Source of the DNA: a virus
DNA length: 17,358 bases
Virus record (IMG/VR): IMGVR_UViG_3300045988_025728
Location: 1 to 17,358 of that record
Reading direction: 5' to 3' (one strand)
Position numbers and translations under genes: made by a program
In this document: piece after piece, positions 1-17,358 of the stretch
How the letters are laid out: each line of letters begins with the position of its first letter
Numbering within the stretch: the stretch's first letter is position 1
Notes under the pieces: generated by a model
Database searches by the model: none
What the model was told of the DNA's origin: nothing
Seen by the model: only the letters and a program-made list of their open reading frames with translations

Positions 1-119
1 AGTTGGTTGAACTTGGGGAGGAGCACTGACATGTGGTATTTCATCATCACTAATGAAACTTTTCAGGTGTTTGAGATTTTGCCTGACTGTGTGAAGCCTA
101 GTGGCATGTTTCATGCAAC
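1..119. repeat. Left inverted terminal repeat (ITR), 119 bp
   Basis: Nt 1-119 are the exact reverse complement of 17240-17358. Identity breaks at nt 120 (g, versus t in the mirrored right end). Terminal ITRs together with a protein-primed family-B polymerase are typical of phi29/Cp-1-type genomes, so this is the likely replication origin. Confidence 0.97.
26..54 (+). promoter_or_regulatory. Candidate inward-facing ITR promoter (CTGACA-17 nt-ACTAAT); mirrored at 17305-17333 on the minus strand
   Basis: CTGACA (26-31), a 17-nt spacer, then ACTAAT (49-54). The match to consensus is weak (5/6 and 4/6). It is proposed only because the terminal operons need a promoter and little sequence lies upstream. 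Confidence 0.25.
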
Positions 120-261
120 GTCGCTTAAGGCCGCATTAGACGGCGTTCTGTCTCATATTCGTGCCGCCTATGAGGGCATGGATGTGAGCGTTGATATTGA
201 TAATGCCACGTTTGACCTTGATAGTACTATGGTTGGAATGGTTAAGGTGGTGTTGGTATAA
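31..261 (+). CDS. ITR-initiated early protein, left copy (76 aa), unknown function
   Basis: ATG at 31 lies 7 nt after the strong SD GGGGAGGAG (15-23). The first 30 aa (MWYFIITNETFQVFEILPDCVKPSGMFHAT) are encoded in the ITR and are identical to the right-end ORF. The stop overlaps the next start (TAATG). An alternative start at ATG 106 (51 aa) applies if transcription begins inside the ITR. Confidence 0.55.
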   Translation: MWYFIITNETFQVFEILPDCVKPSGMFHATSLKAALDGVLSHIRAAYEGMDVSVDIDNATFDLDSTMVGMVKVVLV

Positions 262-430: not shown

Positions 431-679
431 ATGGTTAAGACTGATATGAAAGTCGCTACGTTTGACTCCCCGTTTGTGGGTGGAAGGGTTGAATTGTGGT
501 TTTGTCCTCATGGTGAACGGTACGAGCTGAGGTATGCCGTCCAGTTTTGTACACCGTGTGGCGGTGTATGTGGCGGGTCGGCCTTGTGTGCGTATGATGC
601 TGGGGACGGCTCACAAGTGGTTGATTTGATGCTGGATGCTATCGACATTGCCAATACCCCTCTCTTGGATAGGGGTTGA
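431..679 (+). CDS. Early hypothetical protein, 82 aa, Cys-rich (CPH...CTPC)
   Basis: ORF-track ORF with an ATG start directly after the preceding stop, consistent with operon packing. A zinc-binding C-x-H...C-x-x-C arrangement is possible. No family was recognised. Confidence 0.5.
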   Translation: MVKTDMKVATFDSPFVGGRVELWFCPHGERYELRYAVQFCTPCGGVCGGSALCAYDAGDGSQVVDLMLDAIDIANTPLLDRG

Positions 680-2432: not shown

Positions 2433-2457
2433 GAGAGCACCCACTTTGGGTGCTCTC
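2433..2457 (+). other. Stem-loop GAGAGCACCC-ACTTT-GGGTGCTCTC (attenuator/terminator or 5'-UTR hairpin)
   Basis: Perfect 10-bp GC-rich stem with no T-tract. It lies between the SSB-like gene and the putative terminal protein gene and covers the GTG at 2450, which argues against that start. Confidence 0.6.
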
Positions 2458-2479
2458 GCCATCTAAAAGGGTGCGCACT

Positions 2480-3448
2480 ATGTCCCGAAGCCGTAAGCAG
2501 AAGCATATTAAGGCACGTCAGGCCGCGCAAGCCCGTGTCGCACGTAACATCAAACAGCTTGGCGCTTACTCCCACTCGAATCTCGCCAAAACTGCAGACC
2601 AGCAATTAGTCAATATCGCCAAAACCTTAGGCAGGGAATGGGAGCGGCAGAAGAAACAGGCCATAGCGGAAGCGAAGGCAACCCCTTATCACGCTACTGC
2701 CGTGGAAAAGCCGACGAAAAAAGATTACATGTTTGCCCAGCGCACGCCCATCACCAATGCGCAAATCGACGCGGAACCGGTGGCAAAACGGCGCAAACTC
2801 TTAAGGCAACAGCAACGGAAAATCAACGCGGCACGACGGAAGATCAACGAATGGAACAAGGCGCAAGCCATGCCCCAGCGAAGCGTGTTTGATCAGCGCG
2901 TGGCAGAACTTGAAGGCAGTACGGGCGAGGGTTTCGGACGTAATCAGATCATCTCGTCAAAGCTTACGGACTTTTTGCAAATGACCAATGTGTTGAGCGA
3001 TGAAGCGTTCGTGCGCAGCCAATTGGAGAGCGGACACCGAAACGAATTGCGTGAGCAGATGCATGATGTGGCCGAAATATTGGGACTGCGTACCGAGCAA
3101 AAACGTAAACCGTCTAAAAAGCCGAGAACTGGCAAACAGACTGAAGACTTGTATGGCGATCATGATTGGCCGTCCTATATGAGTCGCGGACGTTACGAAG
3201 TGTTCGAGAAGATACTGGCCACTACGCTTGGCTCGAAACGGTTGAAACGGTTCCGTCAACTGTCGGCCGCGCAAAAACGTGCGTTCATCGAACAGACTGA
3301 CGCCCCCCGTATCGTGTTCGATTGGACGGTATATGACCCCGTCCGCCACGGTCTCACGTCGGTGTTCCGGGACAACAGCGAGGGATATCAGCGCTCACGG
3401 CGGCAGTTCGACCGGTGGCTGGCGGAAGCGGGCGCACTGGAAAAGTAG
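2480..3448 (+). CDS. Putative terminal protein (322 aa)
   Basis: It lies immediately upstream of the protein-primed polymerase, as in phi29 and Cp-1. The N-terminus is very basic (MSRSRKQKHIKARQAAQARVARNIKQ) and there is an internal KRRKLLRQQQRKINAARRK stretch. ATG 2480 was chosen over GTG 2450, which sits inside the hairpin. No direct sequence recognition. Confidence 0.5.
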   Translation: MSRSRKQKHIKARQAAQARVARNIKQLGAYSHSNLAKTADQQLVNIAKTLGREWERQKKQAIAEAKATPYHATAVEKPTKKDYMFAQRTPITNAQIDAEPVAKRRKLLRQQQRKINAARRKINEWNKAQAMPQRSVFDQRVAELEGSTGEGFGRNQIISSKLTDFLQMTNVLSDEAFVRSQLESGHRNELREQMHDVAEILGLRTEQKRKPSKKPRTGKQTEDLYGDHDWPSYMSRGRYEVFEKILATTLGSKRLKRFRQLSAAQKRAFIEQTDAPRIVFDWTVYDPVRHGLTSVFRDNSEGYQRSRRQFDRWLAEAGALEK

Positions 3449-3475: not shown

Positions 3476-4927
3476 ATGGTAGTGCAGGATAATAGGGTGG
3501 GATTATGGTGTGCGGATAACGTCATACGATTCACGGGCGGAACCGCATTGCGTGATGTTGTCCAACCTAATCGCCTTTTGGCGTCCATCATGACAGGCGG
3601 CAAACTCACCGTCTACGTGACTAATCCAGATTTGCTCGACCCCTTTATAGCGCACGTCGTACACGCATTGCCCCACAACGAACACAACGCTAACCTGAGC
3701 TGGGATGCCATAGTGTCCAAAAAGGGAAAATTTTTCAGCTTCACGGTGCGTATCGACCGTAACAATTCCGCACGATTTTTCGACATTTCCAATCTCTTGC
3801 GGGAAAACTGCCGTCTCACCATGCCCGATGCCCAGCTACTCAATATTCTGCGCGAGTACGATAATCGCAACTTGTGCAAGATCACGGCAGGCGGCGCGAG
3901 CATGGAGGCTTTTGCGGCTGGTGAGTGGAAGTGGTATTACGACAAATTCCCCCAACTTGAGGAAGAGACTAAAAAGTCACTGCATGACGCCTATGTCGGC
4001 GGATTTATGATCGCAAAAGAAGGCATGTACGGTAAGGCTATCGACGTTGACTGCAACTCCATGTATCCGAGCATTCTACGGGATGAATGGCTTCCGTGGG
4101 GTGAACCCGAACCATACGAAGGAAAATACGAAGAAGATAGTAACATGCCATTGCATTGTGATGAACTCACGTTTCGCGCGGACCTCAAACCAAACGGATA
4201 CCCCTTTTTATTGGACAATCGCAGTGTCTACGGACTTAATAGGCTCACTTCCACCCGTGGCTACATCACCCGCGTATTGACTGACATAGATCAACAGCTT
4301 TTATACGAGAATTATGAAGTGAGCGTCTACAAGCATGTGCGAGGGTGGAAATTCCGCCGCTCCAAAGGCTTTTTCCGCTCGTTCGTGGACGAATGGGGAG
4401 GGTTAAAACAGAAGGCGACGGGCGAGAAACGGCAAATGGCGAAACTGATCATGAACGCTCTCGTGGGCAAAATGGCGAGTCTGCCCAAAGGTTCCGTCAT
4501 GCTCCCCACCTCAAAAGACGGCATTACCCTCGACTGGGATATTGCGCAACGTGAGGAATCGAATTTGAAAACCGATTTTCTCCCCGTGCCCGTATGGGTG
4601 AATGCTTACGCGAGAAAAAAGCTTATGACCGTCTGCCGTGCAAACTCAGATCGGCTACTATATGCCAATACGGACGGGTGCATATTGTCAGGTTGGGGGC
4701 CGGTGGAATCATGTGACATTCACCCGACTGAATTGGGTAAGTGGAAGATCGCCGCCCGATACGAAAAACTGACTATTCTCGGTATGAACCGGTATCAAGG
4801 ATGGAGAGCAGACGGGGAGGTTGACGTATGCATGGCCGGAAACATGTTCTCACAACCCATACCTTACGAAGATTTTCGACATGGGGTGCAGGTCATGGAT
4901 GATTACGGGACAATGGTCATGCTATAA
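3476..4927 (+). CDS. Protein-primed family-B DNA polymerase (483 aa, compact)
   Basis: Motif A is DVDCNSMYPS, pre-motif A is AYVGGF, motif B is KLIMNALVGK and motif C is LYANTDG. LPWGEPEPYEGKY parallels phi29 LPYGEPIVFEGKY, and ITAGGASMEAF parallels phi29 MTAGSDSLKGF. SD AAGGGAAG lies 7 nt upstream of the ATG. Confidence 0.9.
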   Translation: MVVQDNRVGLWCADNVIRFTGGTALRDVVQPNRLLASIMTGGKLTVYVTNPDLLDPFIAHVVHALPHNEHNANLSWDAIVSKKGKFFSFTVRIDRNNSARFFDISNLLRENCRLTMPDAQLLNILREYDNRNLCKITAGGASMEAFAAGEWKWYYDKFPQLEEETKKSLHDAYVGGFMIAKEGMYGKAIDVDCNSMYPSILRDEWLPWGEPEPYEGKYEEDSNMPLHCDELTFRADLKPNGYPFLLDNRSVYGLNRLTSTRGYITRVLTDIDQQLLYENYEVSVYKHVRGWKFRRSKGFFRSFVDEWGGLKQKATGEKRQMAKLIMNALVGKMASLPKGSVMLPTSKDGITLDWDIAQREESNLKTDFLPVPVWVNAYARKKLMTVCRANSDRLLYANTDGCILSGWGPVESCDIHPTELGKWKIAARYEKLTILGMNRYQGWRADGEVDVCMAGNMFSQPIPYEDFRHGVQVMDDYGTMVML

Positions 4928-13518: not shown

Positions 13519-13539
13519 TAATCCTAATGCCTTAAAATG

Positions 13540-13573
13540 ATAGCCATATCGCCTATAATGGTGATATGGCTAT
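13540..13573 (+). other. Stem-loop enclosing a TATAAT box and sequestering the start codon of the tail lysin gene
   Basis: Perfect 11-bp stem ATAGCCATATC (13540-13550) / GATATGGCTAT (13563-13573). The loop GCCTATAATGGT contains TATAAT (13554-13559). ATG 13566 lies in the 3' arm, exactly 6 nt after the TATAAT. Confidence 0.7.
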
Positions 13574-14777
13574 TACTTTTGCGCAATGGATTGACCAGAC
13601 GAAAAACCGTTTTTGGGACATGGACGGGGCGTATGGCGCGCAATGCTGGGACTTATGGGCAAAATACAGCATGGACATGTACGGCATGTCCATTCAGGAT
13701 TGCATCACCCCTACCGGCTATGCGGGAGGCTTGTACACGTCATACCCGGTATCCGCACGGTGCGAGCAGGTGTACGAACGAATTCCCGCAAGCGGATATC
13801 AGCCGGTGGCCGGTGACGTGGCAATATGGGGGTACGGCACGCACACTCCATACACGCATGTTGCCATAGTCGCGGGGGATGCGGTAAAAGACGGCAGAGT
13901 CTACGTGATTACGCAAAATCCTGACGCAAGCGCGCTCAAATGGTTTCCGATCGACGGACTGTTAGGCTACTTACATCCCCGTACCATGCCTAAGCCGGAC
14001 GTGGATAATCCCACCGGTGACAACAATCAGGGGACCCCAGGCACGAAACGGGGCGGGGCATGGATCCATTGGCAGGGCGACAACCTGTATCTGCATGAGA
14101 CTGATAACAGCGGAGCACGAACCCGTATCTTTTACAAGACCACCGCCAATAATTTTTCGGAAAAAGCGACACAGTCGCAACCGTCCGGCTCGCAAGGACA
14201 AGGGCACCCGTCAAGCTCGACATCACCAGAAAACTCGTACGCCTTATACGTGATTGGCACAGTCGAAGCCAATTTGCGCTGGGATGCAGTAGAAGCGGCC
14301 AACTTGCAGGGTATCGGCATTGCGCAATGGAGCTTCGGCAGACGGTTGCAAGTGTTGAACGCCATGAAAGCGGCAGACCCAACCGGCTATGCGGCATTCA
14401 AAACCGCCGCGCCGCAGATCGCCGCATTAATGGAGAGCGGAGGGGATTTTACAAGAAACCTCACGCAAGCGGAAGCTAGCGCATTCCAGTCATGGGCGGC
14501 ACGCGGTGAATCCCATGAAGGGCAGCGCAAGCAGTTTGCAGAAGATTACGCCGGATATCCACAGGAATACGATGATGATAAAATGCAAATACTGTGGGTC
14601 ACTGCATACCACCAGTCCCCCGCGAACGCGCTCAAGGTGCCGAAGGCGTCAAGCCTCGCCCAGCTCAAGGCCAATATTCTCGCCACGTACCCATTCCAGC
14701 CGTACACGAATCGCTACAATCAGGCGTACTCTCTACTTAGCGTGTGGGATGGAAAATCGAATCCGCCCGCATTCTAA
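13566..14777 (+). CDS. Tail-associated peptidoglycan hydrolase (phi29 gp13 analogue): N-terminal CHAP domain plus C-terminal possible lysozyme/transglycosylase-like domain (403 aa)
   Basis: The CHAP signature is DMDGAYGAQCWDLW (Cys27) ... YTHVAIV (His98) ... ITQNP. The C-terminal segment TVEANLRWDAVEAANLQGIGIAQWS resembles the Glu ... G-(L/I)-x-Q pattern of SLT/lysozyme-like folds (weak). It lies after the appendage gene, as in phi29. The start is supported by alignment to the paralogous endolysin N-terminus. There is no SD. Confidence 0.75.
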   Translation: MAITFAQWIDQTKNRFWDMDGAYGAQCWDLWAKYSMDMYGMSIQDCITPTGYAGGLYTSYPVSARCEQVYERIPASGYQPVAGDVAIWGYGTHTPYTHVAIVAGDAVKDGRVYVITQNPDASALKWFPIDGLLGYLHPRTMPKPDVDNPTGDNNQGTPGTKRGGAWIHWQGDNLYLHETDNSGARTRIFYKTTANNFSEKATQSQPSGSQGQGHPSSSTSPENSYALYVIGTVEANLRWDAVEAANLQGIGIAQWSFGRRLQVLNAMKAADPTGYAAFKTAAPQIAALMESGGDFTRNLTQAEASAFQSWAARGESHEGQRKQFAEDYAGYPQEYDDDKMQILWVTAYHQSPANALKVPKASSLAQLKANILATYPFQPYTNRYNQAYSLLSVWDGKSNPPAF

Positions 14778-16361: not shown

Positions 16362-17045
16362 ATGAACATCTCTGAATGGATGAACAACGTAAACGGAAAA
16401 ATCATCGACATGGACGGAGCATACGGCGGGCAATGCTGGGACCTATGGAGTTCATACGCGCGAAACGTATACGGCATTCCAGCAGCCGACACCAACACCG
16501 TAGACGGATACGCCGCAAGCGTCTACACCGCACGATATGACCGCTCCCGCGCATTGCAAAACACGTTCAATCGAGAGGGTGCCGACTATACGCCGGTTTA
16601 CGGTGACGTGGCATTTTGGAACGGCGCAGGCATGAACCATGTCGCAATTGTCGTTCGAGACAACGGCAACGGTACACTGGAAACCATGTCACAAAACCCG
16701 AACAAGGCCGAATACGTGACAATCAGCAAAAACGGCATTATCGGCTACTTCCACCCGCACTCAGCGAGCGCACCAGCGCCAGCACCAGCACCGGCAAACA
16801 ATAACGTGACCATCGTTCCACGCACCTACAAAGTCAACGTTGACACACTCAACGTACGCTCTGCACCCTCAGTCAATGCAGAAGTAGTAGCCCAGTATCA
16901 CTACGGACAGACAGTCAACCTATCCGAAGGCGGTGTGATCGCAGACGGATACATTTGGGCACACTACACAGGCGGCTCAGGCGCAACACGATACGTAGCA
17001 CTCGCACCCGCCGACAAATCAATGTGGTATCTCGTATTTGCCTGA
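16362..17045 (+). CDS. Endolysin: N-terminal CHAP amidase/endopeptidase, (AP)n linker, C-terminal SH3b cell-wall-binding domain (227 aa)
   Basis: The CHAP signature is DMDGAYGGQCWDLW (Cys25) ... NHVAIVV (His93) ... SQNP. The linker is SASAPAPAPAPA. The SH3b-like segment is YKVNVDTLNVRSAPSVNAEVVAQYHYGQTVNL..DGYIWAHYTGGSGATRYVA. The start lies 2 nt after the holin stop. Confidence 0.9.
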   Translation: MNISEWMNNVNGKIIDMDGAYGGQCWDLWSSYARNVYGIPAADTNTVDGYAASVYTARYDRSRALQNTFNREGADYTPVYGDVAFWNGAGMNHVAIVVRDNGNGTLETMSQNPNKAEYVTISKNGIIGYFHPHSASAPAPAPAPANNNVTIVPRTYKVNVDTLNVRSAPSVNAEVVAQYHYGQTVNLSEGGVIADGYIWAHYTGGSGATRYVALAPADKSMWYLVFA

Positions 17046-17058
17046 TTAGCGGTATAAG

Positions 17059-17088
17059 AAAGCCCCTAGGTTAGAACCTAGGGGCTTT
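17059..17088. terminator. Bidirectional intrinsic terminator between convergent genes
   Basis: Perfect 12-bp stem AAAGCCCCTAGG/CCTAGGGGCTTT with loop TTAGAA and A/T-rich flanks on both sides. It lies between the endolysin (+) and the right-end ORF (-). Confidence 0.85.
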
Positions 17089-17097
17089 AATTATTTA

Positions 17098-17328
17098 TCA
17101 GTCGCCATCATCAATCGAAACAGTATATTTACGGCACGGGCGACCTTTCTTGGAATAACCTTTAGCAACCATGTTGATATCATAATCGTTACTCAATAAA
17201 ACCTCCACAATAGTCTCAAGCGCTCTACGGAACGAAAGAGTTGCATGAAACATGCCACTAGGCTTCACACAGTCAGGCAAAATCTCAAACACCTGAAAAG
17301 TTTCATTAGTGATGATGAAATACCACAT
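17098..17328 (-). CDS. ITR-initiated early protein, right copy (76 aa), unknown function
   Basis: It has the same SD and ATG and the same first 30 aa as the left copy, all ITR-encoded. The C-terminus diverges (LSFRRALETIVEVLLSNDYDINMVAKGYSKKGRPCRKYTVSIDDGD). The total length is identical to the left paralogue. An alternative start lies at 17253. Confidence 0.55.
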   Translation of the reverse strand: MWYFIITNETFQVFEILPDCVKPSGMFHATLSFRRALETIVEVLLSNDYDINMVAKGYSKKGRPCRKYTVSIDDGD

Positions 17329-17358
17329 GTCAGTGCTCCTCCCCAAGTTCAACCAACT
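17240..17358. repeat. Right inverted terminal repeat (ITR), 119 bp
   Basis: Perfect reverse complement of nt 1-119. Confidence 0.97.

Follow-up and report, generated by a model that had tools for sequence, protein, structure and literature searches.

An apparently assembly-truncated inverted terminal repeat and a putative hybrid gene at the right end of a phi29-like Bifidobacterium phage contig

The 17,358-nt viral contig analysed here (hereafter the window, meaning this whole stretch of DNA) most probably stops inside its inverted terminal repeats (ITRs) and not at the ends of the phage genome. We put at roughly 85% the probability that a longer ITR was cut by the assembler, that the early promoter lies in the lost end, and that the open reading frame (ORF) at the right end is a hybrid of two genes; the truncation, the start of the left gene and the chimeric composition of the right ORF are documented by comparison with related contigs. 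The original prediction had taken the edges of the window for physical ends, each with an inward-facing gene that leaves no room for a promoter, and this puzzle dissolves because the outer end sequence was dropped in assembly. The main value of the analysis is accordingly a correction: a promoterless gene at the tip of a capped linear DNA stems from short-read assembly, not from biology. What is left as real is a long and plastic ITR that reaches into coding sequence and thereby makes a hybrid ORF.

The window belongs to a phi29-like podophage of gut Bifidobacterium with protein-primed replication. Its DNA identity to phage BP1 is 81.5% across 87% of its length, and to the Bifidobacterium phages BD811P1-3 ∼75% across 34% of its length (a range of 75-82%); its gene order is that of all four phages. 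It encodes a protein-primed family B DNA polymerase (DNA_pol_B_2, PF03175, E = 1.4e-29; 3476-4927) together with the phi29-type single-stranded DNA-binding protein (SSB, PF17427), major capsid protein (PF25622), gp9 tail knob (PF20934), gp10 connector (PF05352) and gp16 packaging ATPase (PF05894), these last five all matching above the curated Pfam cut-offs, and a CHAP endolysin assigned by Pfam (16362-17045, +). The ORF directly upstream of the polymerase (2450-3448) has no Pfam match, and its position suggests a putative terminal protein. Every large gene lies on the plus strand, and only the last small ORF points inward from the right end; between this ORF (-) and the endolysin gene (+) sits a hairpin terminator with a 13-bp stem (17059-17088), which can be used from both directions. 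Rfam returned no match to a packaging pRNA in the window or in five full-length relatives, and such RNAs diverge fast. Elsewhere in the window, a perfect consensus promoter (TTGACA-17-TATAAT; 1508-1536, +) lies inside ORF 925-1575, followed downstream by AAGGGAGG and then by the TTG start of ORF 1579-1896; the site is present in 74 of 87 loci (TTGACA in 73, TATAAT in 57) and probably acts as an internal promoter in front of the replication genes. The starts of ORFs 13537 and 13566 fall within an inverted repeat of 20 nt (13534-13579; 85% complementary, 6-nt gap).

At the two edges, positions 1-119 (+) and 17240-17358 (-) form a perfect inverted repeat, 100% complementary, which would represent the innermost 119 nt of the ITR, its outer edge being the contig edge. 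Identity falls to random directly past the arms, to 26.8% when the two ends are compared in register over 120-261 (142 nt). The sequence facts of the original prediction are correct (a perfect 119-nt ITR, GGGGAGGAG 7 nt before the ATG at nt 31, and two 76-aa ORFs with common first 30 residues), but its reading of the window edges as physical ends does not survive the k-mer length of the repeat, the cut gene at nt 3-29, the continuation of the sequence in a relative, and the missing terminus and promoter cassette.

The cut gene is evident at the very edge. Window nt 3-29 (+; TTG GTT GAA CTT GGG GAG GAG CAC TGA, in a frame open to nt 1) hold the last 8 codons and the stop codon (LVELGEEH*) of an early gene upstream, a member of the MNI(I)GVDV family, and a mirror copy of this gene end lies at 17330-17356 (-). 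The counterpart in contig L009 is a 118-aa first gene (147-503) ending YELVELSEEH*, with the gene homologous to the left ORF of the window starting 1 nt on (alignments A2 and A5). In the Logan contig L088, window 1-119 recurs with 100% identity and the sequence runs 189 nt farther upstream through the same gene, the ORF of L088 ending YELVELGEEH* (...GDRYELVELGEEH*) and being itself also cut by the contig edge. Over window 1-248 the two are 92.7% identical, with divergence beginning after nt 119, and L088 is a relative of the window phage with a different genome. No significant match to the upstream 118-aa protein was found in Pfam or PHROGs. Since nt 3-29 match the gene end of L009 and L088, the Shine-Dalgarno sequence (SD) GGGGAGGAG (15-23, +), 7 nt before ATG31 (nt 31-33), sits in the 3' end of the upstream cistron, whose stop codon (TGA, 27-29) ends 1 nt before ATG31; homologous junctions are found in L009 and L088. 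In this layout, the SD and ATG31 form an ordinary operon junction. Among the explanations put forward in the original prediction, incomplete deposited ends is thus the one borne out by the continuation in L088 past nt 1. An alignment (A1) that paired window nt 1 with nt 21 of the leader in BD811P2, and would have left only ∼20 nt missing, was dropped, as L009 and L088 show nt 1-29 to be coding. Pattern scans for the window ITR matched only L009 and did not recover the missing outer ITR, and exact look-ups of three window proteins returned no other assembly of the same phage.

The length of the repeat points in the same direction. With the tail protein as bait, we fetched 80 related IMG/VR contigs whole and, with a minimum of 50 nt for a perfect terminal inverted repeat, obtained a set of 45 repeat-bearing sequences (the window, BD811P2 and 43 fetched contigs). 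Their ITRs measure 119 nt in 13 contigs, 99 in five, 141 in three, 77 in two and 55 in one (BD811P2), which together make 24 of the 45. We take 99, 119 and 141 to be MEGAHIT k-mer sizes and 55 and 77 to be SPAdes k-mer sizes, the 55 nt of BD811P2 being presumably a typical SPAdes value; a related ENA contig bears the name k141_.... In length, these 24 fall short of the remaining 21 by a mean of 756 nt (p = 1e-4), and the terminus motif conserved among relatives is found in none of them, as against 15 of the 21 contigs with other ITR lengths, where it lies 11-28 nt from the contig end. The comparison of ITR lengths in related genomes that the original prediction had proposed therefore returns, in 119, an assembler k-mer size common to 13 of the 45 sequences and not a biological length. 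We read window nt 1 and nt 17358, from these sequence comparisons, as contig ends of a de Bruijn-graph assembly and not as genome ends.

A related effect is documented in the CheckV paper, where direct terminal repeats pile up at the k-mer lengths 55/77/99 (PMC8116208, Extended Data) and just 33% of the contigs with ITRs are >90% complete (PMC8116208). As with those direct repeats, the length of the window repeat equals an assembler k and would be a by-product of contig cutting, no measure of the biological repeat. Unlike them, the window repeat is inverted: a unique body flanked by a longer true ITR gives a truncated contig, not a circular one, and the 119 nt are genuine though incomplete ITR sequence. 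The signature affects 24 of the 45 repeat-bearing related contigs, including the GenBank record of the isolate BD811P2 (L002, OP172659), with its ITR of 55 nt, and contigs of this kind are likely to be mistaken for complete genomes because an ITR is present. The records of the other isolates differ at their ends as well: BD811P1 and BD811P3 (OP172658, OP172660; L003, L004) start about 60 nt farther in and have no ITR, and BP1 (L001, PQ571273) has no ITR and carries the family terminus motif internally, at nt 311. The GenBank records of all four phages look incomplete or misjoined at the ends. Remnants of the Nextera transposase adapter (AGATGTGTATAAGAGACAG) were seen at the ends of three public viral contigs (L079 left, L046 both, L033 right).

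What the lost ends would contain can be gauged from the relatives, ∼20 of which start within a few bases of one conserved terminus (..GGGAGGGGTGTGGGTTTGTGTGAAGATTTTCCC..; GGGAGGGGTGTGGG...). This terminus is followed by a T-rich non-coding stretch and then by a promoter-leader cassette (TTTTCGGGCGTGTCG..GTTTGTTTGTGtTATaGTGTAgTTATCAACTTCAAGGGAAAGGAAAaATAAAATG) with an extended -10 element (TGtTATAGT) and a strong SD. The cassette is found once per end in ∼50 relatives, 50-410 nt from the contig end, with the leader lying ∼325-340 nt from the end in full-length relatives, and promoter and leader are conserved in 62 distinct ends. In the window, the cassette has 0 matches on either strand at up to 3-4 mismatches, and the conserved terminus motif is likewise absent from both strands. 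ITRs in relatives range from about 180 to >520 nt and hold the promoter, the leader, the SD and often the ATG. In L050, a nearly complete ITR of 522 nt holds a promoter, an entire gene (66 aa), a terminator and another promoter, stopping precisely at the next ATG; ITRs of the group can thus be long and bear genes. The claim that both ends launch inward transcription of paralogous proteins is supported in its first half: with an identical cassette at each end in relatives, one and the same expression signal appears to drive different inward genes throughout the group, from a promoter in ordinary upstream DNA. Its second half, the paralogy, is not supported by the profile and pairwise comparisons given below.

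The left ORF (31-261, +) encodes a 76-aa small early protein that we name the MWYF family after its first residues. About 50 full-length homologues in related contigs begin MWYF or MWHF, and the protein database holds 614 homologues, of which, among the matches listed, 119 of 120 are 76 aa long and the nine read all start with MWYF; identity to 26 sampled homologues is 79-93% (alignment A6). AlphaFold predicts a β-β-β-α-β-β fold with a pLDDT of 91.5, with strands at residues 2-6, 10-17 and 20-28, a helix at 32-46 and further strands at 52-61 and 67-75. Because of the position of the first three strands, residues 1-25 belong to the predicted fold. Many homologues have K, V, L or R in place of Met26, which ATG106 encodes. 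Since MWYF is conserved in the ∼50 full-length homologues and ATG106 is not, ATG31 is the true start. Searches of Pfam and PHROGs gave nothing significant for this protein, and a Foldseek search of its model against the PDB gave no match below E = 0.3; a HicB-like fold, considered from the strand-strand-strand-helix pattern, was supported by no search. Tightly packed behind the MWYF gene follow two more genes of the left early operon (261-428 and 431-679, +), in an order that is the same in L087 and L088.

The right-end ORF (17098-17328, -), also of 76 aa, reads as an in-frame chimera present in one contig only. The ITR copy of the MWYF N-terminus supplies its residues 1-30, so that both terminal ORFs share the first 30 residues MWYFIITNETFQVFEILPDCVKPSGMFHAT, and its residues 31-76 (LSFRRALETIVEVLLSNDYDINMVAKGYSKKGRPCRKYTVSIDDGD; LSFRRAL...SIDDGD) are the C-terminal 46 residues of a different family. 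The right-end gene of relatives codes for a protein of 85 aa (MLNLTAYVIEFEEYNRYKVIIDGVWRGFVSDNGLEDDST-LSFRRALETIVEVLLSNDYDINMVAKGYSKKGRPCRKYTVSIDDGD), whose own 39-residue N-terminus (MLNLTAYVIEFEEYNRYKVIIDGVWRGFVSDNGLEDDST; MLNLTAYV...) is replaced in the window by the 30 MWYF residues. At the DNA level, the last 46 codons of the window ORF match the right ends of L020, L017 and L027 with 94-98% identity, and only 'AC' is common to both parts at the junction. Comparing terminal ORFs across related genomes, as had been suggested, thus yields an 85-aa right-end gene with a different N-terminus, of which the window ORF is a hybrid. No second chimera is found among the protein database matches listed, scans for the junction matched no viral contig and, among metagenome contigs, two unrelated sequences by chance, and neither the chimera nor the 85-aa family has a significant match in Pfam or PHROGs.

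The two terminal proteins are not detectably paralogous at the sequence level. Profile-profile comparison of the MWYF and right-end families with hhalign gives a probability of 7.6%, and the Smith-Waterman score of the two proteins past the ITR is 18 against a shuffle mean of 19.6, with 1291 of 2000 shuffles scoring as high. The weak similarity beyond the repeat boundary noted in the original prediction is therefore at chance level, and the older, longer terminal duplication that it was held to reflect is not upheld, as the C-terminus of the right ORF belongs to an unrelated 85-aa family. In the suggested structural comparison, the only hint of a resemblance between the right-end family and MWYF is the order of secondary-structure elements, with the junction preceding helix 1 in each; the model of the right-end family is of low quality (pLDDT 50, as against 91.5 for MWYF). 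Because the last 46 codons are 94-98% identical to those of an 85-aa gene family with a different N-terminus, the shared 30 codons most plausibly reflect an ITR that recently expanded inward, into an unrelated gene, and not an old duplication in decay; the boundary would have shifted by illegitimate recombination or end repair between the two termini. It is conceivable, if doubtful, that the chimera is a functional domain swap and not debris, with the ITR acting as a movable expression cassette of terminus, promoter, leader, SD and ATG, whose inner edge would occasionally jump inward and duplicate early genes at both ends; such a swap would combine the three-strand N-terminal module of MWYF with the helix-strand C-terminal module of the right-end protein, joined at what is apparently the same loop between strand 3 and helix 1, a detail we offer as speculation.

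An event akin to that in the window, one gene farther in, is seen in L025, where an ITR of k length (119) has its boundary in codon 29 of the homologue of window 431-679 and leaves a 34-aa stub at the right end, with no in-frame fusion. At the right end of L032, the 85-aa right-end gene carries an internal deletion. Across the 45 sequences, the inner ITR boundary falls 0-4 nt past the first ATG in 16, or 17 with BD811P2, whose variant leader was missed by the boundary scan and whose ITR ends 2 nt past its ATG; in 18 of the 45 it lies within the preceding 60 nt of promoter or leader, and in about 10 of the 45 it reaches into or beyond genes, the ITR of several relatives spanning the whole first gene. 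The 17 genomes with a boundary 0-4 nt past the ATG at both ends (L007, L008, L015, L021, L022, L024, L026, L036, L057, L060, L066, L068, L077, L078, L083, L085 and BD811P2, L002) carry different genes at their two ends. The first genes at the ends fall into at least eight unrelated families of small genes. The block of promoter, leader and ATG behaves as if it were a recombination joint. In most relatives the ITR thus stops only a few bases from a start codon; that its inner edge is pinned there as the end of a movable cassette, ahead of interchangeable small early genes, is a tentative generalization that we hold with little confidence.

The non-coding outer ITR of relatives shows further elements. 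On the minus strand of L010 (120-148), a perfect TTGACA-17-TATAAT promoter faces outward to the terminus, and the site is found in 21 other contigs as well (38 ends); it is not present in the window. In contigs that reach the conserved terminus, its -10 element ends 103-120 nt from the contig end, and the hexamers are nearly invariant (TATAAT, with TACAAT in two genomes), the spacer being variable. From its position, the product of this promoter would be a run-off RNA of about 100-125 nt, A/C-rich and unstructured, that extends to the DNA end. A pRNA in this region of the relatives was considered and finds no support, with no Rfam match and with an outward transcript that is A/C-rich and unstructured (-4 kcal/mol, z = -0.8). 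Two conserved palindromes, TTGACACTGTGTCAA and GTTACGGTAACGTAACCGTAGC, lie at about 180-250 in L010, with equivalents in L021, L009, L048 and L063, and are possible protein-binding sites.

Taken together, we propose the following course of events. With a true ITR longer than k (119), the assembler would output the unique body plus exactly k repeat bases on each side, the outer repeat being lost. The missing part amounts to at least 189 nt per end, for which L088 gives direct support, and is probably nearer to 0.6-0.75 kb per end, since the leader lies ∼325-340 nt from the end in full-length relatives and the upstream gene adds ∼360 nt; the true ITR would then be ∼0.8 kb and the genome ∼18.7 kb long. 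The missing part most likely holds the conserved terminus, the early promoter (extended -10, TGtTATAGT) with leader and SD, and a first early gene, the end of which is what remains at window nt 3-29. As the 62 conserved ends suggest, host RNA polymerase would start at the extended -10 promoter in the outer ITR at both ends and read inward. The left transcript would comprise the upstream gene, the MWYF gene as a downstream cistron with its own SD and a 1-nt stop-start spacing, and the rest of the early operon, and the right transcript would run through the second copy of the upstream gene and through the chimera, as far as the hairpin (17059-17088). In the history of the window phage, the ITR would have spread inward through the first gene and 30 codons of the second, overwriting the outer part of the right end, so that its inner boundary now lies in codon 30 of the MWYF gene and the right copy is fused in frame to codons 40-85 of the right-end gene.

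The main challenge to this scenario is that the right-end repeat could itself be an assembly chimera, which we consider unlikely. The real right end would then carry the ordinary 85-aa gene, the 119 nt of MWYF sequence having been joined on via chimeric reads or mixed strains, and the hybrid ORF would be found in no virion. The hybrid is indeed seen in the window contig alone, the relatives with 94-98% identical 3' parts of the right gene all retain the MLNLTAYV N-terminus, and L088 shows the 119 nt as an identical block in another phage, which makes mixed populations plausible. A graph contig, however, needs k-mer support across the junction, and a high-coverage true competing path would end the contig at the junction, not 119 nt past it; a stop exactly k bases into sequence common to the other end is what a genuine repeat produces. 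Boundaries of the ITR that lie inside or past genes are, moreover, also found in L025, L012, L034, L055, L056, L040 and L050.

Two further readings, both contained in the original prediction, seem to us very improbable. If the window ends were true termini, expression would have to be unusual, with transcription starting at the very tip of the terminal-protein-capped DNA or running across joined ends. The perfect inverted repeat at the contig ends and the SD-ATG pair 31 nt from the edge are all that speaks for this, whereas an ORF with a known homologue is cut off at the edge, identical sequence goes on upstream in L088, the repeat length is an assembler k-mer size in 13 contigs, and the family terminus and promoter cassette are missing from the window; once the ends are recognized as incomplete, an unusual mechanism becomes unnecessary. 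We give as little credence to a real start at ATG106, driven by an in-ITR promoter (CTGACA-17-ACTAAT), with a fortuitous SD/ATG31 match. Its -35-like hexamer is a perfect TTGACA in L011, L019 and L020, but CTGACA-17-ACTAAT fails the consensus scan, and the hexamers are missing in L010, L021 and L046, where the gene comes first in the operon. Codons 1-25, like the MWYF start itself, are conserved in the ∼50 homologues and in the sampled database matches, against a variable Met26, and residues 2-28 form three confident β-strands of the predicted fold. We therefore retain the truncated ITR with a hybrid right-end gene as the best explanation of the window.

Long ITRs that carry origins and early promoters are known from the pneumococcal phage Cp-1, the tectivirus PRD1, adenovirus, poxviruses and Streptomyces linear replicons, and their inner boundaries shift by recombination or end repair, which can duplicate, truncate or fuse genes; we know of no case among these in which the boundary lies a few bases from a start codon, as it does in most members of the window group. 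Like the phages BD811P1-3 and BP1 (GenBank OP172658-60, PQ571273; PMC12694917), the window has inward-facing small genes at both ends, and the chimera of MWYF and right-end gene is found in the window and in none of these four. With the Bacillus phage phi29 and its relatives, the window phage shares the set of replication and structural genes, and its group the linear genome, the inverted terminal repeats and the early promoters near the ends; as in phi29, a small early unit at the right end is transcribed inward, with a terminator at its end that faces the late genes (PMC11476376). The phi29 ITR, in contrast, is 6 bp long (PMC11476376, PMC4974454) and without promoters or genes, whereas that of the window group carries promoter, leader, SD and often the ATG. 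ITRs in this group are thus long, bring an early promoter and a translation start to two different genes, often end a few bases from the ATG, and are plastic enough to swallow whole genes and to make hybrids.
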